Part shown: positions 4,121-58,502 of the stretch, piece after piece
How positions within the stretch are numbered: the first letter of the stretch is position 1
Layout: each line of letters opens with the position of its first letter
Assembly (NCBI GenBank): GCA_902464635.1
Contig: CABQKC010000008.1
Location: 1,521 to 65,520 of the forward strand
Reading direction: 5' to 3'
Source of the DNA: an uncultured Bacillales bacterium
GTDB lineage: Bacteria > Bacillota_I > Bacilli_A > RFN20 > CAG-826
Length of the DNA stretch: 64,000 nucleotides
The notes under the pieces: generated by a model
Seen by the model: the letters and a program-made list of their open reading frames with translations, nothing else
Told to the model about the DNA's origin: nothing
Databases searched by the model: none
Program-made: the position numbers and the translations under genes

Positions 4121-4586
4121 AAGCCACCACAAATGAATACGAAGTAATCAGTGTTACTTCTTCTTTTTCTTTGAAAGGCAATTCCTCGAGATTGCAGTCA
4201 AAATAGACAACCCATGTATCTATTTTGTCCTTTAAAACAATTTCTAACCCCTTGCCAAAAGAAGGTAAAGACACAATGCCGCCAATTGATGAAATAACAC
4301 CCTTGCACTTTACTCTTTCACCATAATAAACGTGTTTCAAATGTTTCAGTTCTTTTTTAAAAGGAATGAACAAGCCAAACATGCACAAAGAAAACAAAAA
4401 GAATAAAATCGTAGAAATAACAATGCTTAAAGGCAAAAGGATACCCTTATTCAAATAATTAATAAAAAGAGAAAAAAGAAAAACGCATAAAAGGAATGCT
4501 AATAGCAAAGCCAAAGAAACAAGAAGAGACAATTTAGTTTTTCTGCTATATATCCTTATAAAATCTTCATATGGCACTTTAATCAT
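4107..4586 (-). CDS. 2-TM hairpin protein with beta-rich ~85-aa cytoplasmic C-terminal domain, unknown function (module copy 1, gene 2)
   Basis: Basic N-terminus, two TM helices with a 4-aa loop, then KKELKHLKH (positive-inside). From the ATG at 4586 the product is 159 aa, the same length as its paralog 46214-46693. The ORF-track start at 4601 is a TTG. Confidence 0.6.
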   Translation of the reverse strand: MIKVPYEDFIRIYSRKTKLSLLVSLALLLAFLLCVFLFSLFINYLNKGILLPLSIVISTILFFLFSLCMFGLFIPFKKELKHLKHVYYGERVKCKGVISSIGGIVSLPSFGKGLEIVLKDKIDTWVVYFDCNLEELPFKEKEEVTLITSYSFVVAYEKD

Positions 4587-12727: not shown

Positions 12728-12728
12728 A

Positions 12729-35753: not shown

Positions 35754-37436
35754 TTATTTCTTCTTAAGGAATTTAGCGCAGTCAAATGTAACAGCAACAA
35801 GGATGATGATGCCTTTGACGAATAACTGAGCATTAGAATCACCGATTCCAATATATGGAAGGATGAAAGAGATTGCCTGGAATAACAATGTTCCGATGAC
35901 AACGCCATGAATTGTACCAACGCCACCACTAAATGAGACTCCACCGACAACGCAAGCTGCAATAGCATCAGATTCCATACCAGTACCATTCTGTGCCTTA
36001 ACAGAAGTTGAATAGATACCGAATATTGATGATCCTAATCCATAAAGGATACCAGCCATCAAGAAAACGCCCATGGTTGTCCAGAATACACTGATTCCAG
36101 AAACAGCAGCAGCTTCAGGATTTCCACCTACTGCAAACATATTCTTACCGAACTTCGTCTTATTCCAGATAAACCACATTACGATAATTAATACAATCGC
36201 ATAGATAATCATAATTGGGAATGTGCCGTTTATCCTACCAGTCAAATTGGTGATTAAGTCATTGTTTGGCATACCGGTGAATCCGTTTTCAGTCAATAAG
36301 ACCATGCCACCGAAGATGATGAGTTGGTTAGCTAAGGTTGAGATGAATGGATGCATCTTGAATTTAGCAGTGAAGAAACCAGCTAAACAAGAGAAGAAAG
36401 TACAGGCAACAGTTGAGCATAAGAATCCAAGGATTACCCTAAACCAAAGTGGAATAGCAGAGAAATCCATTGTCTGTCCTAAGAATTTGATGTCAGGTAT
36501 ACCGCTAGTTGTGCAGAACATAACAGTCAATACGCCGCCCATACCAATCATTCTGCCAACAGAAAGGTCGGTACCAGCTAAGACAATTAATCCTGCTACA
36601 CCTAACGAGAAGAATAAACGAGGAGAACTTTGTTCGACAATAGAAACAATTACGCTCCACTTGAACAAAAACGCCCCATCATTAGCAACGGCATAACCAA
36701 TGGTTAAGAAGATGATTGCTAAGACAATAACAACATATAGACCATTATTGAAGATGAAGTCACGCATATTGAATTTGTAGACTTTTTCTTCAAATTTTTC
36801 CAAGAAATATTCTTGGATTGGACGATACTTCCCGCTAGCGTTTTTAATCGCAGTGCTGCGTTCTTGGAACATTTGATGCTTAGCATCTTTGTTCTCGGTT
36901 ACTTTATTGTTATAGGCTTCCTTTGCTTCTTCAATAGAGAGCATATAAGCCTTTTTGGCAGCAATTAGGTTGCTTCTAGCTTCTTCTTTTTCTTCTTTAG
37001 TAGAAGCACCAACTGAATCAGCTTTAATTTCAGCAAGTTTAGCTTTATAGGTGGCCTTTGCTTCCTCAATTAATTTATTACGAGCAAGTTTAGCTTCTTC
37101 TTTTTCTTTCTTGTTAGACGCAGCCTTTTCTTTTAACATGGCCCCATATTGAGAAGAAACTAATTGATAGAATTCTTTTCTTTCTCTCTTGAGTTCTTCC
37201 TTATTTGTCAAGGCAACTTTCTTTGCCTCTTCAATCAAGGCCTTATCTTTTATAATGATGTCTTCTTTAGCTTCCTTTGGGATTTGATGGTTACTTTTAA
37301 CGCTGCGGATTTCACGATGTAAATCGGCAATGCGCTTTTCACCAAGCTTAGTTAAGGCATCTATGCGTTTTTGACGTATTTCCATTTCTTTCGCTAATTC
37401 TTCTTTTGGAAGTATCGCGACTACTTTTTGTTCCAT
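35754..37436 (-). CDS. mglC: Galactose/glucose ABC transporter permease MglC with ~200-aa N-terminal Lys/Glu-rich coiled-coil extension
   Basis: The C-terminal ~340 aa is a CUT2 permease (GGVSFSGGVGTIHGVVIGTLLFQAI). The N-terminus is rich in repeated IEEAK motifs. Confidence 0.8.
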   Translation of the reverse strand: MEQKVVAILPKEELAKEMEIRQKRIDALTKLGEKRIADLHREIRSVKSNHQIPKEAKEDIIIKDKALIEEAKKVALTNKEELKRERKEFYQLVSSQYGAMLKEKAASNKKEKEEAKLARNKLIEEAKATYKAKLAEIKADSVGASTKEEKEEARSNLIAAKKAYMLSIEEAKEAYNNKVTENKDAKHQMFQERSTAIKNASGKYRPIQEYFLEKFEEKVYKFNMRDFIFNNGLYVVIVLAIIFLTIGYAVANDGAFLFKWSVIVSIVEQSSPRLFFSLGVAGLIVLAGTDLSVGRMIGMGGVLTVMFCTTSGIPDIKFLGQTMDFSAIPLWFRVILGFLCSTVACTFFSCLAGFFTAKFKMHPFISTLANQLIIFGGMVLLTENGFTGMPNNDLITNLTGRINGTFPIMIIYAIVLIIVMWFIWNKTKFGKNMFAVGGNPEAAAVSGISVFWTTMGVFLMAGILYGLGSSIFGIYSTSVKAQNGTGMESDAIAACVVGGVSFSGGVGTIHGVVIGTLLFQAISFILPYIGIGDSNAQLFVKGIIILVAVTFDCAKFLKKK

Positions 37437-37447
37437 CTTCTTTCTCC

Positions 37448-38947
37448 TTATAAATATTTAGCACTCAATTTGAGCAATTCTTCCTGGTTAGTTTCTTTTG
37501 TTTCCACAATTCCGCTAAGGTTATAGTTGCTCATGACGGCAATACGATTTGTAATACCAAGAATTTCAGGCATTTCGCTAGAAACAACGATACATGTCTT
37601 GCCTTGCTTGGCTAGGTTGATGATCAATTGGTATATTTCATATTTAGCACCGACGTCGATACCACGTGTCGGCTCATCAAGAAGGAGAAGGTCTGGAGAT
37701 GTTTCAAGCCATTTTCCAATGATGACTTTTTGTTGGTTTCCACCACTAAGAGCCATGATGTTGTCATCTGGTCCCATGCAGCGGGTATGCATCAATCTAA
37801 TTTCTTCTTCAGTCGATTCTTTCATCTTGGAATCGCTTAATGCAATCCCGTGGATGAATTTATCTAAGTTAGAAATGCATGTATTGAAGGTAAGGTCCAT
37901 CTTTGGGAAGATACCAGAGATCTTTCTTTCTTCGGTAAGATAGGCAAAATTATAATTAATCGCATCCCAAGGACCTTTGAAATCAAGTGGCTTTCCTTTG
38001 TAGATAATCTCGCCACTTCTAATGGTTCTTAATCCGAAGATTGTTTCAAGCAATTCGGTTCTACCTGCCCCAACTAATCCATAAATGCCAAATATTTCAC
38101 CTTTCCTTACTTTAAAGGAAATGTTATTTAGTTTTGGAACATAACGGGTACAAAGATCTTTTAATTCAAATATGACTTCGCCTGGAGTGTTATCGACTTT
38201 TGGGAAACGCTGGCTCAATGAACGCCCAACCATGGCAGAGACTAATTCTTCCATGCAAGTTTCCTTAGTAGGCTTAGTCATAATCATATTTCCATCACGG
38301 AGAACACTGACTTCGTCGCAAATCTCAAATATTTCATCCATTTTATGGGAAATATAAACAAACGAGACACCTTTATCTCTTAATGAGGAAACAATTGAGA
38401 ACAGCTTTCTTACTTCTCTTTCAGTTAAAGAGGAAGTCGGTTCATCTAATACGATTACTTTGGCGTTATAACTTACCGCCTTAGCGATTTCGACCATCTG
38501 TCTTTCGCTAACGCTCATTTTTCTCATTATAGTTTTTGGATTGATATCCATCTTCAAACGTGCAAAAAGCTCTTTGGCAGATCTTAGCATTTCAGCTTCG
38601 TCGACCAAACCGAATTTTGTTGGATACCTTCCTAAGAAGAGGTTATCGAGAATAGTACGGTCAAGGCATTGATTTAGTTCCTGGTGAACCATGGCCACGC
38701 CATTTTCGAGAGCGTCTTTAGGATCTTTGAAGTTGATATGCTTCCCATCGAGGACAATATCGCCTTCATCCATACTATAAATGCCGAAAAGACACTTCAT
38801 CATCGTGGACTTTCCAGCACCATTTTCACCCATTAAGCCAAGGACTGTACCTTTTTTGACTTCAAGATTAATGTCATGAAGGACTTTGTTTTTGCCAAAG
38901 CTTTTGGAGAGATGGTGTATTTCTAATATGTTAGTAGTTTCTTCCAT
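37448..38947 (-). CDS. mglA: Galactose/methyl-galactoside ABC transporter ATP-binding protein MglA (tandem NBDs)
   Basis: Long collinear matches to E. coli MglA as I remember it: MVHQELNQCLDRTILDNLFLGRYP, VLDEPTSSLTEREV, YISHKMDEIFEICDEVSVLRDG, LSGGNQQKVIIGKWL, LLDEPTRGIDVGAKYEIYQLI. Confidence 0.85.
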   Translation of the reverse strand: MEETTNILEIHHLSKSFGKNKVLHDINLEVKKGTVLGLMGENGAGKSTMMKCLFGIYSMDEGDIVLDGKHINFKDPKDALENGVAMVHQELNQCLDRTILDNLFLGRYPTKFGLVDEAEMLRSAKELFARLKMDINPKTIMRKMSVSERQMVEIAKAVSYNAKVIVLDEPTSSLTEREVRKLFSIVSSLRDKGVSFVYISHKMDEIFEICDEVSVLRDGNMIMTKPTKETCMEELVSAMVGRSLSQRFPKVDNTPGEVIFELKDLCTRYVPKLNNISFKVRKGEIFGIYGLVGAGRTELLETIFGLRTIRSGEIIYKGKPLDFKGPWDAINYNFAYLTEERKISGIFPKMDLTFNTCISNLDKFIHGIALSDSKMKESTEEEIRLMHTRCMGPDDNIMALSGGNQQKVIIGKWLETSPDLLLLDEPTRGIDVGAKYEIYQLIINLAKQGKTCIVVSSEMPEILGITNRIAVMSNYNLSGIVETKETNQEELLKLSAKYL

Positions 38948-38964
38948 ATGACCTCCTAAAAGAA

Positions 38965-38995
38965 GCGAGCGCCCAAATCCTATTTAGACGCTCGC
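38965..38995 (-). promoter_or_regulatory. Intercistronic stem-loop between mglB and mglA
   Basis: Minus strand reads GCGAGCG, 17-nt loop, CGCTCGC followed by TTCTTTT. This is the usual position for a partial terminator or stabiliser that raises binding-protein stoichiometry. Confidence 0.45.
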
Positions 38996-39016
38996 CCCAT
39001 ACTTACAAAGAAATTG

Positions 39017-40165
39017 TTATTTCTTCATGTTAGCATCGAACCAGTCGGTGATAACTTTTCCTTGGACTTCGCCTTGTCCGGTGGAACCAGTTCCAACGAA
39101 GTAGACATTATCAAGATTGGCAGCTGCTAAATTAGCAACATCAGAGCCAGTCTTTGGTTGACGGTTGAAGAAGACAGTTGGTTTGCCTTTCTTGGTGCAG
39201 GCACCACTTCCATCAAATTCGAATCCAGCAATCTTTAGGTATTCTTGCCAGGTTGAATGTTCTGGGATATTGAAGGCATAGGCATCAAAGGAGTCACTTT
39301 GATTGGCGTTCTTGACGGATTCAAGCATCTTGGAGTTGTCATTTTCGCCTTTTAATTCCTTATAAGATCCACCTAAAGCAGTAACATAATGTGGAAGGTC
39401 TTTGGCATAGGTTTCGCCGATGAAGTTATCTTTGGCGTCATATAGGCAATATAGGACCTTCTTTCCAGAGAGTAATCCAGTTGCAGTTGGAGTTACATAG
39501 CTTCCTGGAGCATATTGATTAGCATTAGCAGCAGTAACAGCGGCTAACTTGGTTTGAACGATATGGTCAGCAACGCCATCTTTATTTAATTCGGCGTTTC
39601 CATTATATCCTTCGGTGATGTCGGTCTTACCGGCGATTAAGTTGCCAAGTACTAAGGCGGTAGCATAGGCTTGGTCAGTTCCGTTTTGGGAAACAGATCC
39701 AGCTAATGTTCCTTCAACGATCATGTTACAGGCAGTCTTTAAAGCGTCAAATCCAACGATTGGGGTCTTCTTTTGAAGGGTTTGGACAGAGCTAGCAGCA
39801 ATGGCCATACCATCGTTATTAGAAACGACAAAGTCAATCTTGTCACCATGCTTGGTTACCCAGGTTTCCATTAAGACTTTGGCTTGGGTGTCGCTCCAAG
39901 AAGCACCAGATCCATCTTTGGAAGTGGTCTTTTCGAGCATTTTGGCTTTTAATCCATACTTAGCAGCAACTGCATCCATAGCAGCGATGCAGCCTTTGGT
40001 ACGGTCTTCGGCTTCTGGATTGCCATCTTCTCCAACGAGAACGACATAGCCAATTTCGCCATCAGCAACGTGAGTGGCTAAATCATATTCGGTTGAGGTG
40101 TTGCCGCAAGAAGCAAGTAAGCTCATGCTAGCAAGAGCAAATAATGGAATTAAATGTTTTTTCAT
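39017..40165 (-). CDS. mglB: Glucose/galactose-binding lipoprotein, circularly permuted MglB (MglB-2-like topology)
   Basis: Lipobox LLASC. Residues ~35-180 align with the second half of E. coli MglB (GEDGNPEAEDRT / GEPGHPDAEART; SNNDGMAIAA / ANNDAMAMGA; LAGSVSQNGTDQA / LAGTVLNDANNQA). Residues ~235-380 align with the first half (LYDAKDNF / YKYDDNF; VFFNRQP / VFFNKEP; YFVGTGSTGQGEVQG / YYVGTDSKESGIIQG). Confidence 0.8.
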   Translation of the reverse strand: MKKHLIPLFALASMSLLASCGNTSTEYDLATHVADGEIGYVVLVGEDGNPEAEDRTKGCIAAMDAVAAKYGLKAKMLEKTTSKDGSGASWSDTQAKVLMETWVTKHGDKIDFVVSNNDGMAIAASSVQTLQKKTPIVGFDALKTACNMIVEGTLAGSVSQNGTDQAYATALVLGNLIAGKTDITEGYNGNAELNKDGVADHIVQTKLAAVTAANANQYAPGSYVTPTATGLLSGKKVLYCLYDAKDNFIGETYAKDLPHYVTALGGSYKELKGENDNSKMLESVKNANQSDSFDAYAFNIPEHSTWQEYLKIAGFEFDGSGACTKKGKPTVFFNRQPKTGSDVANLAAANLDNVYFVGTGSTGQGEVQGKVITDWFDANMKK

Positions 40166-40242
40166 GTTTTCCTCCTTTAATCCCTAATTGTGGCGGCACT
40201 TCAACAAGAACGACACCGCCTTTTATTAACTCTATTTTGTCT

Positions 40243-40256
40243 AGAAAGCGCTTTCA
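40243..40256 (-). promoter_or_regulatory. Catabolite-responsive element (cre) candidate in the mglB upstream region
   Basis: Minus strand TGAAAGCGCTTTCT against cre consensus TGWAANCGNTNWCA. The core GAAAGCGCTTTC is a perfect 12-bp palindrome. It lies 78-91 nt upstream of the mglB ATG. Confidence 0.5.
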
Positions 40257-40316
40257 AAAGAATGGAAAAAACTCTAAAAAATTTAGAATAAAATACTATC
40301 TTAAACTAGCAAAAGC

Positions 40317-41327
40317 CTAGTTATTCCTAGTTATTTTAGTACCTTTTACATAGTAAAAATTATCGTTTATCTTGATTTCTTCTCCATAAATAGGAAGAGG
40401 AGTATTTTCAACTATATTCAAATAGATATCGGATAAAATCTTGGCTTGGTTATAGGCATCATTAAGCACAGTTCCTAATAAATATCCATCCTTGACTGCT
40501 TGCTTTCCAGTCTCTGTTCCATCTACTCCTAATATAGGGAAGAATTGATCAATGAAAGGAGTATTTATTTCCATTTTTTCCTTTAGATATTCAACTGCGC
40601 CTAAAGCCATTTCATCATTATTGCATAACAAGAGCTCTACATTCTCGCCATTTAGGTACATCTTTTTCATCTCTTCATAGGCAAGACTTTTTTCCCAATC
40701 GCAATAACTAACATTAATCAAGTCGACTTTAAATCCTAATGTCCTAAGTTTTTCTAAAGCGTATTTACTTCTATTCTCGGCATCTTGATGGGAAAGTTCT
40801 CCTCTAAATAAGGCGACCTGCAATTTGCCATCGTTATTCTTGTCAAATCTAGAAGAAGGGAAATTGGATGCTTCTCCAAAATAAATAGAGGCAATCTCAG
40901 ATTGGGCTTCGCCTTGGTAAGTGCTATCGGCACCTACATAATATATATTTTCTTTAGCCCAGCTATTCTTCGTACAGTCTTCTTTAAGGGGTTCTCTATT
41001 AATAAACAATACAGGGGTATCTTCTTTTTCGGCTTTTTCAATAATCATAGATGCACTTAATCTATCTACGACATTAATAATTAATGGGTTTTTTGGATTT
41101 AATTCCAATTCCTTCCCTATCTGGGTATTTTGGGTGCTTTGTTTCCTTGAAGCGTTATATGTAGTAACTTCATATCCTCTTTCCTTTAAGGCCAAAGAGA
41201 ATTCATCTTTTAAAGAAGACATGAAATTGTCGTTTAGATCATAAATAAAGAAACACGGGTTTACTTTAGCCTCGCCACAGGAAAGCAAAAGAAGAGGCAA
41301 GAATATTAAATTAGTTTTATTTTTCAT
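40317..41327 (-). CDS. MglB-like sugar-binding lipoprotein with canonical topology, probable sensor partner of the adjacent kinase
   Basis: Lipobox LLLLSC. Collinear with E. coli MglB: IYDLNDNFMSSL, VLFINREP, YYVGADSTYQGEAQ, NNDGKLQVALFRGELSHQDAENR, CNNDEMALGAVEYLK, LGTVLNDAYNQAK. Overlaps the kinase gene by 11 nt. Confidence 0.75.
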   Translation of the reverse strand: MKNKTNLIFLPLLLLSCGEAKVNPCFFIYDLNDNFMSSLKDEFSLALKERGYEVTTYNASRKQSTQNTQIGKELELNPKNPLIINVVDRLSASMIIEKAEKEDTPVLFINREPLKEDCTKNSWAKENIYYVGADSTYQGEAQSEIASIYFGEASNFPSSRFDKNNDGKLQVALFRGELSHQDAENRSKYALEKLRTLGFKVDLINVSYCDWEKSLAYEEMKKMYLNGENVELLLCNNDEMALGAVEYLKEKMEINTPFIDQFFPILGVDGTETGKQAVKDGYLLGTVLNDAYNQAKILSDIYLNIVENTPLPIYGEEIKINDNFYYVKGTKITRNN

Positions 41328-43041
41328 GTTCCCCTCCTTCTGGGATTATCAAGGTAATTGTCGTACCTATATCCAAAGCACTTTCGATTTTCATATCGGC
41401 TTTGTTCCCATAATAGACACGTAGACGCATATAGACATTCTTCAATCCAACCCCTTTAGAAGTAGATTCATCTTTTAATGAATTCTCTAAAGCGAGGCGG
41501 GTTTCTTCTATCATTCCATATCCATTATCGGAAATAGATAGATACACGTATCCATTATCTTTATATCCTTTGACTTTAATTAACCCCACTTCCCCTTCTT
41601 TTAAACCGTGGTTAATAGAATTCTCGATTATAGGTTGGAGGACTAATTTAACTATATCCATATCAAGGATATCTTCACTTACATCAAAACTATAATCGAA
41701 AGCATCCCCAAACCTAAGTTTCTGGATTAATAGATAATTCTTCGCATGTTCTATTTCTTTTCTTAAAGGGATGATGTTTTTCCCTTTGGAAATAGAAATC
41801 CTAAAGAACCTAGAAAGGGCAACAATCATTTCTTCGGCCTTGTCATTTTCTTTTTCTTCAATAAGGGCAAGAATGCTATCTAAGGTGTTATAAAGGAAAT
41901 GAGGATTAATCTGGTTTTGAAGGGCAAGGAGTTCGCTTTTCCTTTGCTCTTCTTTTTCAAATATTAGTTTCTTAGTTAAATCATCAATCCTATCAATAAG
42001 GGCAATGAAGGAATTATCTAATTCAACAATTTCTTTTGACCCCTCAATATTCAAATGCTTGGAAGGAAGTTCTTCTAAGGATACTATTTGGCTCATCTTT
42101 GAACTTAATAACAAAATTGGCTTTACTGATTTTCTTGATACAAGCAAGAAAATAAAAGCAGAAACCAATGCTAAAGCCACCCCGATTAGCGTTGTATATA
42201 AGGTGAAATTAGATATAGCAACATGGACGGCATCGTTATTTAAAAAGACGCCTAATCTCCAAGATGTTGAAGATATAGTAGATGCAAAAACAAAGAAAGA
42301 ATGGTCGCCTAGATTATAATTACCTACTCCCATTACTAGGTTTTGTAATATCCCCTTCTTAGCATCAAAATCGCTAGGCAAAGAAGAATATACTTCTCTA
42401 TATTCCTTATCATAAATTAAGAAGCTGCTTCCTTCTCCTAAAGCTGTCTCGCTTAAGACATTTACGATTTGATTGAAACTAAAATCAATACGTATAACTG
42501 CATCAAAAGAAGAATCCCTATCGTAACTAGCATATCTAGAAAGAGTAAACATATATGGGTAGACAGGATTTGGAATAGAAGGAAGAGTAAGAATAGGTAT
42601 TAATTTATTCTCGTTACTGGAAAATGTTTGTTTAAACCATCCTTCGTTTTTAGCGTTGCTACTTGCTTCTATTTTCCCTGCGCTAGTAATCAAAGCCCCA
42701 TCATTTGCGCTATAGATAGATGTTCCTATTACTTCTTCTTTTAAAGACAATAAACCTGAGAAAGTCGCATCCATCTTTACTTTAAAAGAAGACGGGTCAT
42801 CAGTTTCGTTAAAAGAAGAAATAACTACATCGCTATTTTTAAATATCTGCGAGAAATAGGCATCATAAGTGCCTAATAATTGTTCTCCTGTAGTCCTTAG
42901 GTTTTGATTTGAAGTGGTCTCAACGTTTTCTTTGTAGATGAAATTAGCGCTAGCGACAATAGAGCCAACCAAAATAACTAGAATCAGTTCTAGAGGTAAT
43001 AACAATGAAAAATATAATGACTTTGGTTTCCTTTTCTTCAT
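41317..43041 (-). CDS. Sensor histidine kinase, YesM/LytS-type (two TM, extracellular domain, HAMP, PF06580 H-box, HATPase)
   Basis: LQNQINPHFLYNTLDSI is the H-box. LVLQPIIENSINHG is the N box. SDNGYGM and KGVGLKNV are G boxes. Confidence 0.85.
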   Translation of the reverse strand: MKKRKPKSLYFSLLLPLELILVILVGSIVASANFIYKENVETTSNQNLRTTGEQLLGTYDAYFSQIFKNSDVVISSFNETDDPSSFKVKMDATFSGLLSLKEEVIGTSIYSANDGALITSAGKIEASSNAKNEGWFKQTFSSNENKLIPILTLPSIPNPVYPYMFTLSRYASYDRDSSFDAVIRIDFSFNQIVNVLSETALGEGSSFLIYDKEYREVYSSLPSDFDAKKGILQNLVMGVGNYNLGDHSFFVFASTISSTSWRLGVFLNNDAVHVAISNFTLYTTLIGVALALVSAFIFLLVSRKSVKPILLLSSKMSQIVSLEELPSKHLNIEGSKEIVELDNSFIALIDRIDDLTKKLIFEKEEQRKSELLALQNQINPHFLYNTLDSILALIEEKENDKAEEMIVALSRFFRISISKGKNIIPLRKEIEHAKNYLLIQKLRFGDAFDYSFDVSEDILDMDIVKLVLQPIIENSINHGLKEGEVGLIKVKGYKDNGYVYLSISDNGYGMIEETRLALENSLKDESTSKGVGLKNVYMRLRVYYGNKADMKIESALDIGTTITLIIPEGGEHEK

Positions 43042-44630
43042 TGTTTACGGAACTCCAAAGGTGACATTCCAAAGCATTTCTTAAAGCAATGGGAGAAATA
43101 ATATGGGTCATCATATCCAATGTCATGAGCAATCTGGGCCATCTTAATATTTGGATCAGAAAGAAGGCGTTTAGCTTCTTCCATTCTTCTATTGGTCAAT
43201 AATTTAGTAAAGGTAGTCCCGTGTTTTTTTAAAATCGCGAATATATAGGAAGAAGAATACCCCAACTCACTTGAAAGAGATTCAATAGAAACGGAGCTAT
43301 TCGCATAATTGAAATCAATATATTTCTTAATTAGGATAAAAGCGTTATCTAACCCACTTATACGTGCCCCATTATTGATTTCTAGGACCATATCGATAAG
43401 TTCATCAAAGAAATCACATGTCGATTCTAATCCCTTTTTTGAATAAAGTTCATTGATTAATGCTACATGGGGTCGATGTGTTGCATATAACTTATCCAAG
43501 GCTATGCAACTTTTTAACATGGAATCAAATAGGTTGTTAATGATTAAAGAATAGGAATCCTTGTAATCAATGCTTCCTAGTTTCTCTATTAGTTTCCTGC
43601 TTAATTCTTTTGCTTCTTCTTTTTTGCCATAAAGCAAGGCATAACCGATGTTTTTGAAATCATTATCATCAACTTTGCCTAGCCCCGCCTGGCGGAATGC
43701 TAAATCATCATAGAAAAGAAGAAGCCCTTCGCCCATGATGGTCCTATATTCCAAAACCCATCTAGTATGTCTAAATAATCTTCTATAGCTAAACCCTTCT
43801 TCCCCCATATGGCTAGATTCGCTAACCGCACAAGAAAAACTTAACCCACAGCTTCTTTTAATCTTAGCCAATACAAAAGATAACTTTCCTTCTAATTCGT
43901 CTCTAGTAAGAGGCTTGTCGCTTACAAAAAGAACACCTAATGATGAAGATGGTTCAAAAGTAAAGAAGGATAAAGAATCCTTAAAAGCAGTATTTAGATT
44001 CTCTTCTAGATAGAACCTAGATAATTCAATATCTTCATAAGTAAGAGATTCTTCTTCCTTATCTGAATCAAATAAGGCAATAGAAATGTATTTATCTTTT
44101 AAATCAATCCCGTCTGCTTCTAATTTTTCTAATAATTTGTCTGGGATAGTTTTCAAGGTACATAACCTTAATAAATCAGCATTCTGTTCTACTTTCCTTA
44201 ATGTCTGCCTATGTTCTTGTAGTTTCTTGATGTCTCTATTTATATCTTTTGATTTATCTAGCCTTTCTTTAGCCTTGGCTAACGCTTGACGTAATTCTTC
44301 AAAAGATAACGGCTTAGATAGATAAGCAACGGCATCTAGATTAATCGCTTGCTTAGCAAAATCAAAATCATCAAAGCCAGAAAGAATTATTATTTGAAGC
44401 AATGGGTGCGTTTCTTTTAGGGTTTTAGCTAATTCAAGACCTGTAATAAAAGGCATCTTGATATCAGTTATAAGCAAATCCAAATCAGTTAATGATACCC
44501 CTGCTTCTAAAGCGTCATAACCATTTTGGTATGATCCAATAACTTCAAAGTCTTCTTTTTGTTTTTCTAGTAATGAAAGCAGGCGATTTCTAACTGCCTC
44601 TTCATCGTCGGCAATAATGATTTTATACAT
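43038..44630 (-). CDS. YesN-type response regulator (receiver + AraC-family HTH)
   Basis: MYKIIIADDE...LITDIKMP...IIILSG is the receiver. The C-terminal AQIAHDIGYDDPYYFSHCFKKCFGMSPLEFR is an AraC HTH. Confidence 0.85.
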   Translation of the reverse strand: MYKIIIADDEEAVRNRLLSLLEKQKEDFEVIGSYQNGYDALEAGVSLTDLDLLITDIKMPFITGLELAKTLKETHPLLQIIILSGFDDFDFAKQAINLDAVAYLSKPLSFEELRQALAKAKERLDKSKDINRDIKKLQEHRQTLRKVEQNADLLRLCTLKTIPDKLLEKLEADGIDLKDKYISIALFDSDKEEESLTYEDIELSRFYLEENLNTAFKDSLSFFTFEPSSSLGVLFVSDKPLTRDELEGKLSFVLAKIKRSCGLSFSCAVSESSHMGEEGFSYRRLFRHTRWVLEYRTIMGEGLLLFYDDLAFRQAGLGKVDDNDFKNIGYALLYGKKEEAKELSRKLIEKLGSIDYKDSYSLIINNLFDSMLKSCIALDKLYATHRPHVALINELYSKKGLESTCDFFDELIDMVLEINNGARISGLDNAFILIKKYIDFNYANSSVSIESLSSELGYSSSYIFAILKKHGTTFTKLLTNRRMEEAKRLLSDPNIKMAQIAHDIGYDDPYYFSHCFKKCFGMSPLEFRKQ

Positions 44631-44711: not shown

Positions 44712-45614
44712 TTATTTCTTTTTTATCCTATAGATACCTTTATCTACTAGTTTGGGATAAGAAGTCTTGTTTATCACTTTGTCGAATACATATGTTGAAT
44801 AAATGTAGAAAAGAAGAAATCCTAGAGGAAAATAAAGAAGGAAATATAAAGCCAAGGTTATAAGAACAACATATAAGTTGCCTAATAACAAAAGGAATAA
44901 GGGAGCGATTAAAACCAAAGAGAAACCTAATGTTGGTAAAGATGATGCGAAATATAACAAATAGCCATTTCTAAAATTAACCCACATAGAATTTTTATAA
45001 ATCGGGGTAGAGCAAATCGATAATAAGAAAGAAGGCATTATAAAGATAAAAAGCAATATCAACGGGGCAAAAAACGCCATTGTGGAAACAAAACCTTTTG
45101 ATCCGCTAGAAAGAAGGAAGATTACTAAAATATTCGATAAAGTAAATATAAAGGAAGTTAACAAAACCAAAATAAAGGTTTGCCCTATGTTTTCTTTTAT
45201 TCCTTTAAAGAAATCGGCTTTGAAATCTAACATTTCATAATAAACCATTATCTTAAATATTTTTTCTAGCCCTGCTAAAGGAATAGAAAGAAGTAATAAA
45301 CACAATAGATTAGCGATACTAAAGGCAACGTTAAGAATGAATAGATTTGAATGATATATTCCCGCTTCTATTTTTCCTTCTAAATAAGAAGCATATAAAG
45401 ATGAAGACATTATGTTTAAGCCTAGAATTGAAGCAATTAAAGGCAAAGAGAACAAAAACATAATCGCCCCACTAATAAGCAATGCTCTCCACCTAGATTT
45501 AAATAAATCGGCGAAGACCTCTACCCTATTATGAGGCAAATTCTCGATTGTAAAATCCTTGTTAGAATAATTTACAAATATACTATTTTTCTTCTTTCCC
45601 TTATTCTTTTTCAT
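44712..45614 (-). CDS. DUF624/YesL-family integral membrane protein (module copy 2, gene 4)
   Basis: NRVEVFADLFKSRWRALLISG motif and about six TM helices. The ATG is embedded in Tyr-Glu codons near the end of the upstream gene. Confidence 0.7.
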   Translation of the reverse strand: MKKNKGKKKNSIFVNYSNKDFTIENLPHNRVEVFADLFKSRWRALLISGAIMFLFSLPLIASILGLNIMSSSLYASYLEGKIEAGIYHSNLFILNVAFSIANLLCLLLLSIPLAGLEKIFKIMVYYEMLDFKADFFKGIKENIGQTFILVLLTSFIFTLSNILVIFLLSSGSKGFVSTMAFFAPLILLFIFIMPSFLLSICSTPIYKNSMWVNFRNGYLLYFASSLPTLGFSLVLIAPLFLLLLGNLYVVLITLALYFLLYFPLGFLLFYIYSTYVFDKVINKTSYPKLVDKGIYRIKKK

Positions 45615-46221
45615 AATTTAGCAAAGCCCTTGCTGCTTTTACACCGTTATCGGTCTTCCCATTAGTATCTTTATGAAACGACATGTTGTTCATAGATGTC
45701 TTATTAAATACAAGGATATATTCCTTGCTTAATTCATCTTCATAACTGATGAAATCATTTAAAAACAATGAACCATCTTCTTTAAATAATTTAAGCCCAT
45801 ATGTTTTAGAATCAAGGGAATAACAGTCGTATTTATCCCCAAATGTTTCTTTTAGAAGGCTTTCATCTATCTCTAAACATAATGAGGAAATAATGTTCTT
45901 ATCAAAATATCCAATAGGCAAAAGAAAGAAGTCACAAGAATGTTGCCCAACCGAAGATATCATTGTCCCAAACAAAGAATAAGAAGGATCGCTAGTATAG
46001 ACATCTATTTGCTTTATTGTCTCTATTTCTTCCTTTTCGATAACGGAGGTAAATAAAGATTCATCCCCACTTTTTACGCCAACAAAAATGCCTACTTTTT
46101 CATTTGCTTTATATCTAACTTTTGCAGGAACTAACCAAGTCCATAAAGCAATTGATAAAACAATCAAAAGCAAATAGACAAAGCCGTATCTAAATATGTG
46201 ACGCCTAATAGATTTATTCAT
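45601..46221 (-). CDS. N-terminally membrane-anchored protein with external domain (module copy 2, gene 3)
   Basis: MNKSIRRHIFRYG plus one TM helix. Blocks shared with 3512-4120: K-V-x-(M/I)-(L/F)-(I/V)-G-(A/V)-K after the TM anchor, D(I/F)x(I/L)(I/L)P, and (K/T)YG(I/L)K(I/L). Confidence 0.6.
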   Translation of the reverse strand: MNKSIRRHIFRYGFVYLLLIVLSIALWTWLVPAKVRYKANEKVGIFVGVKSGDESLFTSVIEKEEIETIKQIDVYTSDPSYSLFGTMISSVGQHSCDFFLLPIGYFDKNIISSLCLEIDESLLKETFGDKYDCYSLDSKTYGLKLFKEDGSLFLNDFISYEDELSKEYILVFNKTSMNNMSFHKDTNGKTDNGVKAARALLNYEKE

Positions 46222-46693
46222 ATTTGATTGATGTCACATATCGATTTTGAATACGTGCCTCCACTATTTTCTTGTTTTCTATACATGGAATTAATCTTTT
46301 TTCTATATAGAAAGATTTTGTTTTTCCTTCACTAACTATCTTGAATGTAACAAATTCAACCTCATGAACAAATATAGAAATATCTTCAATTTCAAATGAT
46401 TCAATTTGATAGGTTGAAATCGATACTTTTCTTATTTCCTTAATCAGGGATAACTTTCCAATTAAAGGAGCTAGATAATATGTTCCTATAAAAAACAAGC
46501 TACATAGAAGCAAAGAGAAAAAGAGGCATAGAAGAACTTCATAAACTACATAATTGCTTCTATTAGCAAGGAAATAAAATAACAAAGATATCCCTATTCC
46601 AAAAAGAAGAACGATACCCATGATTATAGAAACAAGCTTAATCCTGCTTCTAACCTTAATTTCTTCTTCTTGAGAATAGAACTTACTTTCCAT
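46214..46693 (-). CDS. 2-TM hairpin protein with beta-rich cytoplasmic C-terminal domain (module copy 2, gene 2)
   Basis: The ATG at 46693 (MESKFYSQ) gives 159 aa, the same as copy 1. Same topology and the same Y-E C-terminal end. The ORF-track start at 46744 would overlap the ATPase gene by 62 nt. Confidence 0.6.
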   Translation of the reverse strand: MESKFYSQEEEIKVRSRIKLVSIIMGIVLLFGIGISLLFYFLANRSNYVVYEVLLCLFFSLLLCSLFFIGTYYLAPLIGKLSLIKEIRKVSISTYQIESFEIEDISIFVHEVEFVTFKIVSEGKTKSFYIEKRLIPCIENKKIVEARIQNRYVTSIKYE

Positions 46694-47477
46694 TTCTAAT
46701 TTCCTCGATATCAAAAGTATCGTTGCTAAATAAAGAAGAAACAAATTCGGTCTTTGGTTTCCTAATTATTTCATCTACTGTCCCTACTTGTTCAACTTTT
46801 CCTTCGTTTAATATGATTAGCCTATCAGAAAAAGCACTAGCTTCTTTTAAATCGTGTGTAATAAAAAGAAAAGTTCCATCTATTAAACTAGATAATTCCC
46901 TTAAGCTATGCCAAATGTCTTGTTTGCTAGCTACATCAATAGATGCAAAAGGCTCGTCAAATATAAATAAAGAAGCATTGTTTGCCATGGCCCTAGCAAG
47001 TGCAACTCTTTGTTGTTGACCTATGGAAAGTTGCTTTATTCTTCTTGGCAAAAGCAATTCAATATCAAATTTCTTGGCCAATTCCAAAACTCTTTCCTTT
47101 ATATAATTAGAATCCATCCTTAGATTCTTCAAAGGAAAAGCAATATTATCGTAAACAGTCATCGAAGGATAAAGGATGCGTCTTTGGGCTATATAGGCCA
47201 AATGTCTTTCTCTTAAGGGAATTGATTCGATATCATTCCCGTCTAAATAGATATTCCCGCCATAATCCTGAAGGCCTAATATAATTTTGACTAAAGTAGA
47301 TTTGCCTGCCCCTGATGGGCCAAGCAAAGAAACAAATTCACCTTCATATATTTCAAAAGAAACGTGTCTTAAAACAATGTTGTGTTTCTTTCTTTTGATA
47401 TATTCGCTAGAAACATCATCAAATTTTAGTTTTATTCTTTTATTGGACTCTGTTTGCGAAGTACGAGATGGCACCAT
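46683..47477 (-). CDS. ABC transporter ATP-binding protein, MalK-like NBD only, degenerate signature (module copy 2, gene 1)
   Basis: GPSGAGKST, IAQRRILYPSMT, LSIGQQQR at the signature position, IFDEP, ITHD. The start is uncertain: ATG at 47477 or TTG at 47516. Either overlaps the ROK gene 3' end. Confidence 0.8.
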   Translation of the reverse strand: MVPSRTSQTESNKRIKLKFDDVSSEYIKRKKHNIVLRHVSFEIYEGEFVSLLGPSGAGKSTLVKIILGLQDYGGNIYLDGNDIESIPLRERHLAYIAQRRILYPSMTVYDNIAFPLKNLRMDSNYIKERVLELAKKFDIELLLPRRIKQLSIGQQQRVALARAMANNASLFIFDEPFASIDVASKQDIWHSLRELSSLIDGTFLFITHDLKEASAFSDRLIILNEGKVEQVGTVDEIIRKPKTEFVSSLFSNDTFDIEEIRNGK

Positions 47478-48702
47478 AATTTTCAGAATTAGTCCTCTTC
47501 TTTGCCATTTCAGCAAATCTAGATAATAGGTATTTGCTGCTAGCTTGATATACAGCCCCTAGCAAATTTGAATCGTGATTCAATGAAGACGTGATTATTT
47601 GAACTGTATTAAAGTTCTTGTCATATAGCCTAAAATAACGAAGCAAAGTCTCAAAATATTCTTTGCCGAAATCAAGAATCCTCCCATCGATGCAGATATA
47701 ATCTAAATCTAATAAGTTAGCAATATATAGCAACTGTAAGGCGTTTACCCTAGCGGATTTATCAACTGCTTTTGAAACTATTGGATCATTTTGCTTATAA
47801 CGTTCAACTACATCGTTTAATTGGAATACATCCTGTTTGAAGAATGAATCATTACTATCTTTTGAAAGTTCATGAATCTCGGCATAAATGTCAGTAATGG
47901 TAAAGAAGCGGCCTAAATAGTTTCTAGAGCAATCATCTACTTCATTTATATTTGCCATTTCGCCTGCAAATCCATTAGACCCAGTATATAAATCTCCATT
48001 AAACATCAAAGAGGATCCAGAAGTTATATCAATGAATACAAAGAATACGTTCTTTGCATCTTTAGGGATAGAACCAAACCTTGCCTCCCCTGCCAAACCT
48101 AGATTGATATCGTTAAACATCTCACATTGGACATGAAATTCATTTTCAAAATATTTTTGAATATTAATCGTCCTGCAATCCTTGACTCTAGGAGCAGAGA
48201 TAAAATCATGGGTAAGTTTATCAAATTTGCCAGGAGAAGAAATACATATTCCTAACAATGGACGATTATTAACAACATCTGAAAGAAGCATGTTTTTTAG
48301 TTTTCTTGAAATCTCTTTTAAAACATCTTCATCGATATAAATTACATGTTTGACTGTATCTCTAATCAATATTTGGTTAGATGCATCGCTAATGCAAAAA
48401 GCCATATCTCTACCAGATAGATCAATCGCGGCAAAAACTCCGATATCATTATCTACTGTATAAAGAACTCTCTGCCTGCCTCTACCTTTTTTTCCATTAT
48501 TAATATTTACATAAGGAACGATTAGTTTCTCTTCTAATAATTCCTCGGTAATGAGTTTTAATGCAGGGTTAGACAAAGAAGTCTTTTTAGAAAGTTCGAT
48601 GCAACTAATAGGGCGTTCACGGATGTAATCCATTACCACTATCTGGTTAGCAATTCTAATGTTAGAAGGCGATTTTAATATAGCTGCTTTTTCTTTTTTC
48701 AT
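47440..48702 (-). CDS. ROK-family regulator-like protein lacking the ROK zinc-cysteine signature
   Basis: N-terminal wHTH (ISCIELSKKTSLSNPALKLITEELLEEKLI) and a ROK/ASKHA-like body (GICISSPG, GFAGEM). The segment where C-x-C-G-x2-G-C-x-E should lie reads AGEMANINEVDDCSRNYLGRF. Confidence 0.65.
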   Translation of the reverse strand: MKKEKAAILKSPSNIRIANQIVVMDYIRERPISCIELSKKTSLSNPALKLITEELLEEKLIVPYVNINNGKKGRGRQRVLYTVDNDIGVFAAIDLSGRDMAFCISDASNQILIRDTVKHVIYIDEDVLKEISRKLKNMLLSDVVNNRPLLGICISSPGKFDKLTHDFISAPRVKDCRTINIQKYFENEFHVQCEMFNDINLGLAGEARFGSIPKDAKNVFFVFIDITSGSSLMFNGDLYTGSNGFAGEMANINEVDDCSRNYLGRFFTITDIYAEIHELSKDSNDSFFKQDVFQLNDVVERYKQNDPIVSKAVDKSARVNALQLLYIANLLDLDYICIDGRILDFGKEYFETLLRYFRLYDKNFNTVQIITSSLNHDSNLLGAVYQASSKYLLSRFAEMAKKRTNSENYGAISYFANRVQ

Positions 48703-53689: not shown

Positions 53690-55084
53690 TCAATTTTCGT
53701 AGTTAAGTAAATCAATTAATATAGATTCCCCTGGCTCTAAATCTAACTCCAAAGAAGAACCCTTAACCTCTTCTATAGAGGCATTTTGGTATTTATTCGC
53801 CCTGACATAACTAGAGAAGTTTAACTTGGCTTTCCCTTTGTTAGTCAAAGAATTATTGAATACGTAATAAGCACTTTTTCCTCCATGGTCAAATACCCCG
53901 ATAAGTAAATCGGATTCAGTATCAACGTTTTTAAGTTCGCGGAAAGAAGTAACGAATTCTGCTTTTTGTTCGTTAGAGAACGCAGCAGGAGAAGAACCAA
54001 ATTGCATCAAGGCAACTCTAGAAGAAATCATCAATATTTCATCCATAGAAGCAATTTGTTTGTTTATGGATTGAAAATATGGGAATAATTCAGTCTTTTC
54101 GCCATTTTTATTAACAAAATTGCCTCTCCAAAGGGCGTCATCTACTTCATATGGGGTCATATAGCAGAAATATTGGATTCCCTTCGCCCCATAAACTAGA
54201 TTGGAACCTATTTGCCAATCGATTTCAACTTTAGTAGGAACTCTTACTGTCCAACTATCAAATGAGCCTGCTTGGATAAATGGCCAGAAAGGAACTTTAT
54301 ACTTATTTGCTAATTTTGATGCTAGATATAGCTGATCAAAATAGCCGCCAGATACAGATGGGAATTCTTTTCTTAAACCATAGAAATCAAAACTAAGTAC
54401 CTGAGGTTGTACGGTTTTTAAAAATGATTCTAGATATTGTTCATAACTAACTGGCTGTCCAGCAATCCCACTAAGTTGATCGCTAGTCGCATAGTTAGGG
54501 AATAAATTAACATAATAGCAATATTTGGAATAATAGCTTCTAAAAGCCTTCCTTCCGCTTACTAAACCTTGGAATTTGTTCAAGGCTGGTTCATCTGTAA
54601 TCAATGAACCTCCATATGATTTGTAGGAAGCAAATTCATCCATGGCTTCCTTAAATGCATCAATGTCCTCACTTAATGCCCCTACTCTTTCATCTCTAGG
54701 AAGATAAACTAAACCATTATCTTCTGCTAATTTAAGAGCCCTTTTGATATTGGTCATTGATAAACCAGCAGTTTCATATAATCCATATATTGAATTAAGG
54801 CCAGCCTCTTTAATCATGGCAAATTGTTCTTGATTAATATAATCCTTATCACCCATCGACCAAGGGGAACACCATCCACTAATAGGCATTGTAGTCCTAT
54901 CTAAAGATGGAAAAGTATATGTGAATAAATTTACTTCTTGGTTGAGTTTTAGTTTCTCTTCATTGTCTTTAGAAGAATTTGTTTCTTTTTCTTCGCTAGA
55001 GGAACTAGAAGTAATTACTTGTCCACCACAGCTAGTCAATGTTAATAAAAGAAACAAGGCAAATGGCTTAATAGATTTATTCAT
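53690..55084 (-). CDS. Lipoprotein, TIM-barrel-like putative glycoside hydrolase (unassigned family), paralog A
   Basis: The ATG at 55084 gives MNKSIKPFALFLLLTLTSC, with GGAGG 9 nt upstream and an ATGA overlap with the permease stop. Blocks LITDEP, YVNLFPNYA, SFDFYG and IQYFCYMTP. Confidence 0.65.
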   Translation of the reverse strand: MNKSIKPFALFLLLTLTSCGGQVITSSSSSEEKETNSSKDNEEKLKLNQEVNLFTYTFPSLDRTTMPISGWCSPWSMGDKDYINQEQFAMIKEAGLNSIYGLYETAGLSMTNIKRALKLAEDNGLVYLPRDERVGALSEDIDAFKEAMDEFASYKSYGGSLITDEPALNKFQGLVSGRKAFRSYYSKYCYYVNLFPNYATSDQLSGIAGQPVSYEQYLESFLKTVQPQVLSFDFYGLRKEFPSVSGGYFDQLYLASKLANKYKVPFWPFIQAGSFDSWTVRVPTKVEIDWQIGSNLVYGAKGIQYFCYMTPYEVDDALWRGNFVNKNGEKTELFPYFQSINKQIASMDEILMISSRVALMQFGSSPAAFSNEQKAEFVTSFRELKNVDTESDLLIGVFDHGGKSAYYVFNNSLTNKGKAKLNFSSYVRANKYQNASIEEVKGSSLELDLEPGESILIDLLNYEN

Positions 55085-55968
55085 CCTTTTAGTCCTCCTG
55101 TAGTAACGTTGGTCATTATTTGTTTTTGGAATGCGATGAAAATAATGATTATTGGGAGCATCGAAAATAGCATCAATGCAAATAAGGCAGGCCAATTAGC
55201 GTCATATTGCATTTGATTTACATAAGCCTGTAATCCTACCGCCAAAGTCGGATTATTCTTTAAATATAGGAACGGTGTGTAATAATCGTTCCAGAATCCG
55301 ATGAAATTAAGTATCCCTAATGGAATTAATGAAGGTAAAACCATTGGGAGCATGATCTTAATAAATACGGTCAATTCATTCGCCCCATCTATATAAGCTG
55401 ATTCAGCATAAGACCAACTTATTGATTTAAACGCCCCATATAGCAATAGGAATTGGAAACCAAATCCACCGGAATAGAGCAAGATTAGGGCCAATATGTT
55501 GTCATATAACCCAAGGTCTCCGATTAATTTATAGGTTGCAGATGTTGATCCAATCGTAGGAACAACCATGACCATAACAGCCAAAATATATAAAGCGTTT
55601 CTTCCAAAGAATTTGAATTTGGCAACTACATAGGCAACGCAAGATGCACTAGCTAAAGAAAGAAGAGTTCCAATTGTAGCAATAAAGAAGCTACGTAATG
55701 TCATTTCCCAGACATTAGAACCCATCATTTTCCTATTCAAGACGGTTTTTAGATTAATCCACCCATTTGAGAAATCTTTTGGCCAACTCCATACATCCTG
55801 GAAGAATTCGGCATTAGTCTTAAACATATTAAGAAACATCCAGACAAAAGGAAAAATTAGACTTGCCGCATAGATGAAAAAGACAAAGAACATGATGCCC
55901 TTGGCTATCCTTAATGATACAGGGTCCCTCACGCTTTTGCCTTTTTTGATATTCCTTCTTATCTCCAT
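55081..55968 (-). CDS. CUT1 sugar ABC transporter permease (LplC/YtcP-like), locus 2
   Basis: EAA-loop region ESAYIDGANELTVFIKIMLPMVLP. Six TM helices. Confidence 0.85.
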   Translation of the reverse strand: MEIRRNIKKGKSVRDPVSLRIAKGIMFFVFFIYAASLIFPFVWMFLNMFKTNAEFFQDVWSWPKDFSNGWINLKTVLNRKMMGSNVWEMTLRSFFIATIGTLLSLASASCVAYVVAKFKFFGRNALYILAVMVMVVPTIGSTSATYKLIGDLGLYDNILALILLYSGGFGFQFLLLYGAFKSISWSYAESAYIDGANELTVFIKIMLPMVLPSLIPLGILNFIGFWNDYYTPFLYLKNNPTLAVGLQAYVNQMQYDANWPALFALMLFSMLPIIIIFIAFQKQIMTNVTTGGLKG

Positions 55969-58449: not shown

Positions 58450-58502
58450 GTGATTTTTCACTCCTTTCAGTAAATATACAAACGGGCTATTGCCCAAAAT
58501 AA

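Follow-up and report, generated by a model that had tools for sequence, protein, structure and literature searches.

A four-gene module at the end of two glycan-degradation operons of an uncultured Bacillales bacterium looks like an undescribed ABC-type complex

Two glycan-degradation operons and the genes that end them

We analysed 64,000 nucleotides (nt) of DNA from an uncultured Bacillales bacterium (GenBank assembly GCA_902464635.1, contig CABQKC010000008.1, positions 1,521 to 65,520 of the forward strand). This whole stretch is referred to below as the window, and coordinates without a locus prefix are those of the window. It has a G+C content of ~33% and carries nearly all of its genes on the minus strand. 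Two long glycan-degradation operons lie in it, and both terminate in a module of four genes encoding, in this order, an ATP-binding cassette (ABC) ATPase (nucleotide-binding domain, NBD), a two-helix hairpin protein (HP), an N-terminally anchored protein (ANC) and a six-helix membrane protein (TM). The module at 2697-5313 is copy 1 and that at 44712-47477 is copy 2, both on the minus strand. In the sources that we searched such a module is neither described nor annotated, and it looks like an undescribed ABC-type complex.

The copy 2 NBD gene (46683-47477, minus strand, as are all module genes) encodes a short MalK-lineage ABC ATPase of 264 amino acids (aa) when read from the ATG at 47477, the longest open reading frame (ORF) starting from a TTG at 47516. 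It is followed by HP (46214-46693, 159 aa from an internal ATG), with two transmembrane helices and a match to the family profile described below; by ANC (45601-46221, 206 aa), in which an N-terminal signal-anchor helix precedes an acidic alpha/beta domain of ~165 aa placed outside the cell; and by TM (44712-45614, 300 aa), with six transmembrane helices and an N-terminal amphipathic helix. Copy 1 consists of a short MalK-lineage NBD of 244 aa (4579-5313), HP of 159 aa from the ATG at 4586 (4107-4586, identified as an ORF and by the family profile), ANC of 202 aa from the ATG at 4120 (3512-4120) and TM of 272 aa (2697-3515), the latter two identified as ORFs and by BLASTP to copy 2. As an earlier reading of the window, made from the sequence alone, had pointed out, gene order is the same in the two copies, and HP, ANC and TM are of nearly equal size.

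That sequence-only reading had also stated that all six internal junctions overlap, with the downstream ATG inside a Tyr codon at four of them. Both statements hold: copy 2 has overlaps of 11, 8 and 14 nt and copy 1 of 8, 14 and 4 nt, and the start codon falls inside a TAT codon at exactly four junctions, in the context TAT GAA (HP/ANC and ANC/TM of copy 2, HP/ANC of copy 1) or TAT GAT (NBD/HP of copy 1). The remaining two junctions, NBD/HP of copy 2 and ANC/TM of copy 1, read AAT GGA and ATA TGA, and the tATGg form of the Tyr-codon junction is not seen among the six.

Predicted topologies agree between the copies for TM, HP and ANC, again as proposed earlier. TM is predicted to have six helices with both termini in the cytoplasm, 10 Lys/Arg residues preceding helix 1 and 8 following helix 6 (positive-inside). 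HP has two helices, connected in copy 2 by a short NRSNY loop, and then a C-terminal domain of ~80 aa on the side of the N-terminus, which in copy 2 is beta-rich and predicted to be cytoplasmic. ANC is predicted to have its N-terminus inside, a single helix and the acidic domain of ~165 aa outside.

Besides a 511-aa MsmK-like ATPase, a binding protein and two CUT1 permeases, locus 1 (~5.3-33.8 kb) has genes for a ROK regulator, GH20C, GH123, GH38, an esterase, a Y_phosphatase3 protein and DUF6259, and copy 1 of the module comes after these genes. In locus 2, which extends from 47.4 kb to at least 64 kb, genes for a GH78-like protein and a binding protein are accompanied by those for two CUT1 permeases (55081-55968 and 58503-59453), a Big_9/cadherin protein and a CBM_X2 protein, as well as for a SASA esterase, GH20C and a ROK regulator; copy 2 follows. 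The gene for this ROK-family regulator, which has an N-terminal helix-turn-helix (47440-48702, minus strand), overlaps the start of the copy 2 NBD with its 3' end by 38 nt.

Relationship and age of the two copies

Three of the four protein pairs are connected directly by BLASTP: NBD (32% identity, E 2e-50), TM (30%, E 1e-26) and ANC (26% over 134 aa, E 1e-5). The HP pair gives E 0.29 in the same comparison and a probability of 26% in a three-versus-three profile-profile comparison, and the sequence-only reading had named, as what would undo its proposal, small proteins that are non-homologous and alike in composition and topology only. We compared copy 2 HP with a profile of ten sequences (copy 1 HP and nine relatives, none of the copy 2 lineage). 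It scores 47.1 bits (E 4.6e-13 in 2,594 ORFs) in a colinear, full-length alignment (model 1-158, protein 1-157), while the best of 300 shuffles, with the membrane and soluble halves kept apart, reaches 9.4 bits; a resemblance of composition or topology alone therefore fails as an explanation for HP. All 35 matches to the profile among the 2,594 ORFs are ORFs in the hairpin position. An iterative profile seeded with copy 1 picks up copy 2 in the second round, and one seeded with copy 2 stayed within its own lineage, the bridging thus coming from copy 1 only. Judged by these comparisons, all four protein pairs are homologous and the two gene sets represent one four-gene module family. The view that the copies are alike only in composition and topology, for which the lack of BLASTP similarity between the HP proteins could be cited, is largely refuted at the family level.

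The copies are not a recent duplication. In the TM tree they are not sisters: copy 2 groups with L011, L003, L001 and L014, and copy 1 with L030, L019 and L022 (L-numbers denote TM-family loci in other genomes or metagenomes). The nearest relative of each of the four proteins is found in L001 for copy 2 and in L016 or L030 for copy 1, and is never the other copy. The two are ancient paralogues or independent acquisitions, which agrees with the earlier proposal of an old duplication, as each copy is nearer to modules of other genomes than to its counterpart. Two modules on different contigs occur in other metagenome-assembled genomes (MAGs) as well (L020 with L027, L024 with L028). Across 12 modules, mean pairwise identity is 41% for NBD, 30% for TM, 21% for ANC and 17% for HP; HP and ANC evolve fast, with order, size and topology preserved.

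The short ATPase

Pfam ABC_tran matches both NBDs (E 1.1e-33 for copy 2 and 2e-27 for copy 1). Their best NCBIfam models are UgpC, GlcV, PotA, CysA and MalK, matched with ~165-213 bits versus cut-offs of 432-568 (UgpC: 210.8 and 197.7 versus 432; MalK equivalog: 167 and 175 versus 568; UgpC and PotA lead for copy 2, each with ~210 bits), and comparison with the PDB likewise points to the MalK/UgpC/MsmK/MsmX group. Among solved structures, MalK-type sugar ATPases from archaea and thermophiles come closest; they are 355-378 aa long and without exception carry the C-terminal OB_MalK/TOBE regulatory domain (~130 aa). This domain has no Pfam match in the window NBDs, which end 10-20 residues past the NBD core; it is detected in the 511-aa ATPase of locus 1 and in the long NBDs of some related loci (type B below).

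Walker A, the Q-loop Gln, the DEP of Walker B, the MalK-type SN[LIV]D D-loop and the H-loop are all present and intact, and the DEPLSNLD of Walker B and D-loop and the Q-loop region resemble those of the MalK group. The signature motif reads LSIGQ in copy 2 and a degenerate VSLGE in copy 1, and is LSGGQ in most short NBDs and LS[ILV]GQ in several. On this basis the short NBD looks catalytically active. The short NBDs also have substitutions of their own, with VSQ for VFQ and THD[LIM] for THDQ.

In a neighbour-joining tree (100 bootstraps, with E. coli MalK, UgpC, PotA and CysA as references), MsmK-like proteins form a clade with MalK and UgpC at a bootstrap of 69-76, with PotA and CysA next to it, and all 25 short or fused NBDs fall outside this clade in a poorly resolved, long-branched grade. 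The suspicion that the NBD might be an ordinary MsmK-like energiser that has merely lost its C-terminal domain is not borne out, because the protein lies outside the MsmK clade, scores less than half of the family cut-offs and has its own substitutions. The short NBD is, as far as its sequence tells, a distinct and fast-evolving offshoot of the MalK/MsmK lineage.

A canonical MsmK/UgpC-type CUT1 ATPase is present in the window as well. It is the 511-aa protein of locus 1 (23901-25436, minus strand; Pfam ABC_tran and OB_MalK), which passes the NCBIfam UgpC cut-off (439.6 versus 432), groups with E. coli MalK and UgpC and is likely to be the shared energiser of the CUT1 permeases in the window. 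Its ABC domain is split by an insertion of ~120-140 aa, the Pfam match covering residues 22-128 and resuming near 248. A 439-aa MsmK-like protein in another locus (L029:2828-4147) reads as having a shorter insertion, apparently in the same place.

The membrane protein and the small subunits

The AlphaFold2 model of TM (pLDDT 87.3, pTM 0.83) shows an N-terminal amphipathic helix followed by six long helices. Near-invariant residues of the family are mostly cytoplasmic and concentrate in LPxNRxEVFxD before helix 1, DFxxGIKxN after helix 2 and FDxxINxxxYPxxxxKG after helix 6. In copy 2 these motifs read LPHNRxEVFxD, DFxxGIKxN and FDKxINxxxYPxLVxKGIY, all on the predicted cytoplasmic face. This pattern fits a docking surface for a cytoplasmic partner, for which the NBD is the candidate.

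The sequence-only reading had labelled TM as a DUF624 protein, a label that does not hold at the level of the family. The TM proteins of the window match no Pfam model (E up to 1) and no NCBIfam model (E up to 0.1), PF04854 (DUF624/YesL) included. Sub-threshold DUF624 matches were obtained for 2 of 64 TM-family members (best E 0.0016), and the family consensus reaches E 0.0018 and 18.9 bits versus a gathering cut-off of 24.2, over model positions 4-75 of 77. The matching stretch, consensus residues 80-148, corresponds to helix 2, the loop and helix 3, so that the N- and C-terminal motifs of this ~280-aa family lie outside it. DUF624 is the sole Pfam family matched by the TM family, which makes a relationship plausible, remote at best; like the TM family, DUF624/YesL proteins are multi-helix membrane proteins of Firmicute sugar loci. 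None of the 22 distinct TM relatives from two homology searches has a precomputed Pfam domain or a name, and a full-text literature search yielded no paper assigning a function to YesL or DUF624.

Searched against the PDB with Foldseek, the TM model is most similar to choline-transporter-like proteins of the PNS1/CTL1 type (E 0.025-0.09, TM-score 0.45-0.48), and then to CysZ. In ABC-2/type V exporters, too, the NBD precedes a six-helix membrane protein that starts with an amphipathic helix, so that an exporter, or a housekeeping ABC system unrelated to the glycan loci, has to be considered. The NBD, however, belongs to the importer-type MalK/PotA/CysA group and not to the ABC-2 group, no ABC-2 membrane domain is found among the top Foldseek matches of TM, and the genomic context of the family is almost exclusively sugar catabolism. 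We regard this explanation, taken together with that of a merely superficial likeness of the copies, as very improbable.

Two relatives carry additional domains: P0024 (590 aa) has a BD-FAE carbohydrate esterase fused to the cytoplasmic C-terminus of TM, and P0047 (414 aa) has a C-terminal extension of ~130 aa, which has no Pfam match when searched alone and to which a single weak cupin match from the scan of the family (E 0.0068) may belong.

HP has no informative Pfam or profile match. Its C-terminal domain was considered as a stand-in for the OB/TOBE domain of MalK and rejected (hhalign probability 0.1%, no Pfam match). ANC, with an extracellular alpha/beta domain on one N-terminal helix, is reminiscent of the tethered binding domains of Gram-positive ABC importers and resembles the first lobe of sugar-binding proteins weakly but in register. 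It differs from them in that its ~165 aa correspond to roughly one lobe and in that the similarities are below significance.

Gene arrangements in other genomes

An exhaustive search with a TM profile through 1.84 billion cluster representatives returned 1,766 clusters (50% identity) with E values of 1e-3 or below, of which 537 lie at or below 1e-30. A word-indexed homologue search gave 3, 8 and 17 matches, none with a name or Pfam label, a number far below the yield of the exhaustive search. A scan of one genome per species found 43 TM-family loci, all of them in uncultured gut or rumen MAGs, from Bacilli, Erysipelotrichaceae and Oscillospiraceae/Clostridia; the Bacilli loci L010-L012 ("uncultured Mollicutes" or Candidatus Enteromonas) share 92-97% identity with the window. 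No match was obtained by tblastn of TM against plasmids.

Neighbourhoods were labelled with our own ORF calls and profiles, and three contigs additionally with Pfam. In the scan loci and metagenome loci taken together, TM is adjacent or fused to a MalK-lineage NBD in 44 of the 48 loci with readable flanks. The arrangement of the window, a short NBD followed by HP, ANC and TM, was found at 17 loci (type A). In L044 the short NBD is replaced by a full-length one that includes the OB domain, and one locus (L058) has the permuted order TM-NBD-HP-ANC. In type B (13 loci), HP-ANC-TM is followed within a few nt by an MsmK-like NBD of 626-834 aa, found in rumen and gut Bacilli and Erysipelotrichaceae, in which NBD, OB_MalK and TOBE_2 are followed by an unannotated C-terminal extension of 250-450 aa (for example L004:10888-12771, L035:8811-11315 and L038:8820-11186); the cores of these proteins are identical to E. 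coli MalK at the five catalytic motifs compared. Type B and L044 thus put a true full-length MsmK-like protein beside HP-ANC-TM. Type C (11 loci, mostly Oscillospiraceae) consists of a short NBD and TM without HP or ANC. Fused NBD arrangements occur at 2 loci, and TM lacks an adjacent NBD at 4. HP and ANC co-occur with the sole exception of L031, which has ANC without HP.

Both fusions come from Oscillospiraceae MAGs. A 521-aa ORF (L041:7317-8882, plus strand) joins a complete NBD with an LSGGQ signature to TM, whose motif LPHNRKEVFFD begins near residue 262. In a 472-aa ORF (L031:6598-8016, plus strand) the NBD is followed by the transmembrane helix and domain of ANC, an arrangement that also places the N-terminus of ANC in the cytoplasm. 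The core of the module is the NBD-TM pair, with HP and ANC optional and a full-length MsmK-like ATPase used in some lineages.

The neighbours of the module are overwhelmingly sugar-catabolic. In L015, the NBD-TM pair stands in a row of a GDSL esterase, a GH78 rhamnosidase, a fucose isomerase, NBD, TM, a GH36-like protein, an FGGY kinase and a rhamnose isomerase, and our profiles found neither a CUT1 permease nor another ABC ATPase within ~8 kb on either side. Of 51 loci with flanks of ~8 kb on each side, 17 have a CUT1 permease in these flanks and 4 have one no more than 2 kb away, in line with Pfam scans of the neighbouring genes.

These counts bear on the possibility, raised with the sequence-only reading, that the short NBD energises the CUT1 permeases of its locus. 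TM, HP and ANC would then be accessory or regulatory subunits that might, for instance, tether or stabilise an NBD dimer lacking the C-terminal dimerising domain. Locus 2 indeed has a binding protein and two CUT1 permeases and, as that reading had noted, no further ABC ATPase between 47.5 kb and the end of the window at 64 kb, past which the locus may run. Two permeases begin 239 nt after TM in L016, the D-loop and Q-loop region of the short NBD have remained MalK-like, and true DUF624/YesL genes are commonly located in CUT1 loci. Yet a canonical MsmK-like ATPase occurs together with the short-NBD module in locus 1 of the window and in L022, L029 and L031. In Firmicutes, several CUT1 systems typically share one ATPase of the MsmK/MsmX type; locus 2 can thus be served by the 511-aa protein and would not need a separate ATPase. 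The majority of related modules lack a CUT1 permease within 8 kb, and none was found in L015 and its relatives; the short NBDs branch outside the MalK/UgpC/MsmK clade; fusions of the NBD to TM and to ANC exist; and the closest solved ATPases of the CUT1, PotA and CysA types all retain the regulatory domain missing here. The proposal is weakened by these observations, and it is unlikely that driving CUT1 permeases is the main function of the short NBD, which may nevertheless serve both TM and CUT1 permeases in a few operons.

A dedicated complex and its possible role in sugar uptake

We suggest that the four genes probably encode one dedicated ABC-type complex. The short ATPase, which would have lost its regulatory domain while keeping the catalytic motifs, is proposed to dock on the cytoplasmic face of the YesL-like TM, this pair forming the core of the complex. 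HP and ANC would be auxiliary subunits, and the extracellular domain of ANC may capture a ligand. Through the overlapping starts and stops the complex would be translated as a unit, together with the glycan operon that it ends. Most likely it would use ATP to take up a sugar or small glycan fragment that its own locus releases, in parallel with the CUT1 permeases of that locus and not as their motor, and the two copies in the window would be ancient paralogues serving different loci. The analysis shows homology of all four pairs, recurrence and linkage of the genes in many genomes, intact ATPase motifs, the predicted topology and a position of the NBD outside the MsmK clade, whereas physical assembly, direction of transport and substrate are inferred. 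For the statement as a whole, a dedicated ABC-type complex built on a YesL-like protein and most likely importing sugar, we estimate a probability of about 45%.

Several observations weigh against this proposal. No PDB entry matches the TM model below E 0.001 in Foldseek and no solved ABC membrane domain is among the matches; TM was also tried as a divergent CUT1 permease and rejected (hhalign probability of 5.6% against 38 CUT1 and E. coli permeases). Because of these two results, a translocating role of TM is an indirect conclusion, and the protein has no conserved polar residues inside the membrane. ANC resembles a binding-protein lobe only weakly: hhalign against the local CUT1 binding proteins gives a probability of 34.5% (P 4e-4) with the N-lobe in register, the best PDB profile match is a HAAT binding protein at E 0.058, and the AlphaFold2 model, built from a five-sequence alignment, is poor (pLDDT 58) with uninformative Foldseek matches. 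The fusions of NBD to TM and to ANC are each single occurrences, and a metagenome scan for a second NBD-TM fusion of the L041 kind found none. The NBD tree was built by neighbour joining and has low support inside the short-NBD grade. Finally, the short NBD directly follows a permease pair in L059 (permease, permease, NBD, TM), and L031 has the order permease, permease, NBD-ANC, TM; both arrangements favour the CUT1 motor described above.

Comparison with known systems places the module between several of them. From the MalK/UgpC/MsmK/MsmX ATPases, its closest relatives, the NBD is set apart by the non-permease membrane protein to which it is linked or fused. Like MalF and MalG (BPD_transp_1), TM is paired with MalK-lineage ATPases and has its best-conserved element in a cytoplasmic loop (EAA in the former, DFxxGIKxN after helix 2 in TM), but it has no detectable sequence, profile or structural similarity to them. 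Energy-coupling factor (ECF) transporters and other importers without a soluble binding protein offer a parallel in the pairing of a small six-helix protein with an ABC ATPase, and the loci consisting only of NBD and TM likewise lack a classical soluble binding protein; unlike ECF transporters, the module has no gene for an EcfT-like scaffold, and its NBD scores higher with MalK-type than with ECF-type models.

A model that fits all arrangements is that YesL-like TM proteins are an extra membrane client of MalK-lineage ATPases, served by a dedicated short ATPase or, as in type B, by a shared MsmK. The membrane domains of ABC transporters are classified into a few folds, and the parts list of CUT1 importers is thought to be fixed as a binding protein, two permeases and a MalK-type ATPase. 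Against this background, we find a MalK-lineage ATPase that is repeatedly linked, and occasionally fused, to an unnamed membrane protein without a solved structural relative. A further step, which we consider rather doubtful, would be to regard YesL-like six-helix proteins as an unrecognised class of ABC membrane subunits, with a fold unlike the solved ones, that act as alternative clients of MalK/MsmK in an importer without a two-lobed binding protein and with at most a tethered one-lobe ANC. If true, this would explain the role of the widespread orphan DUF624/YesL genes in Firmicute sugar loci. In gut lineages that are abundant yet uncultured (RF39-like Bacilli, Erysipelotrichaceae, Oscillospiraceae), the TM family occurs in loci for host glycans, rhamnose and fucose. 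Should the module be a transporter, it would represent an uptake route missing from models of glycan foraging in the gut and a first functional handle on DUF624/YesL; should it instead regulate MsmK-type ATPases, it would bear on how these are shared among many permeases.

Regulators and other neighbouring genes

The module could also be a signalling device, that is, an ABC-driven membrane sensor reporting substrate to adjacent regulators (ROK and, in copy 2, an AraC-type response regulator with its kinase). Transporter-controlled regulators are known from MalK-MalT, PtsG-Mlc and BceAB-BceS. The 38-nt overlap of ROK with the copy 2 NBD would fit such a role, as would the order GH20-ROK-NBD-HP-ANC-TM, which is kept in L001 and L010-L012; AraC-type regulators are frequent neighbours of the module, and conservation in TM is cytoplasmic and not intramembrane. 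Copy 2 ends 81 nt upstream of genes for an AraC response regulator, a histidine kinase and a sensor binding protein, and no terminator is predicted in this spacer. It does contain a promoter-like site (44668-44639), however, which suggests a separate transcription unit, and the response regulator/kinase unit is probably transcribed from its own promoter. An adjacent ROK or two-component system is missing from copy 1 and most relatives, the NBD-TM pair of L015 is embedded between catabolic enzymes, and regulators are common in any sugar locus, so that their presence does not discriminate. We consider signalling improbable as the function of the module, and prefer a dedicated complex engaged in sugar uptake.

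The genes downstream of copy 2 (35754-44630, minus strand) encode an AraC-type response regulator, a Cache/His_kinase sensor and a Peripla_BP_4 protein, together a three-part sugar sensor, followed by a CUT2 ABC transporter composed of a binding protein, a tandem-NBD ATPase and a 560-aa permease. On the other side of the window, a gene for a HipA-like kinase (1345-2652, plus strand) converges on copy 1, with a lone response-regulator gene (477-1256, plus strand) upstream of it. HTH_3 and HipA-like genes also lie shortly 3' of the module in L004 (13587-15148), beyond the MsmK-like and esterase genes. Stand-alone BD-FAE esterases adjoin the MsmK-like gene both in the window (25567-26481) and in L004.

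Glycan operons also contain genes for large Y_phosphatase3 (tyrosine-phosphatase-like) proteins, at 10439-12751 (minus strand) in the window and at L007:3296-4456 and 6477-8084 in the fucose locus of a relative. In locus 2, an 820-aa Big_9/cadherin-domain protein is interleaved with the two CUT1 permease genes, and this group is flanked by genes for proteins of 454 and 501 aa without a Pfam match (53690-55195, 56035-58497 and 59457-60821, minus strand). The 501-aa ORF, with a TTG start as called, overlaps the permease ORF by 115 nt.

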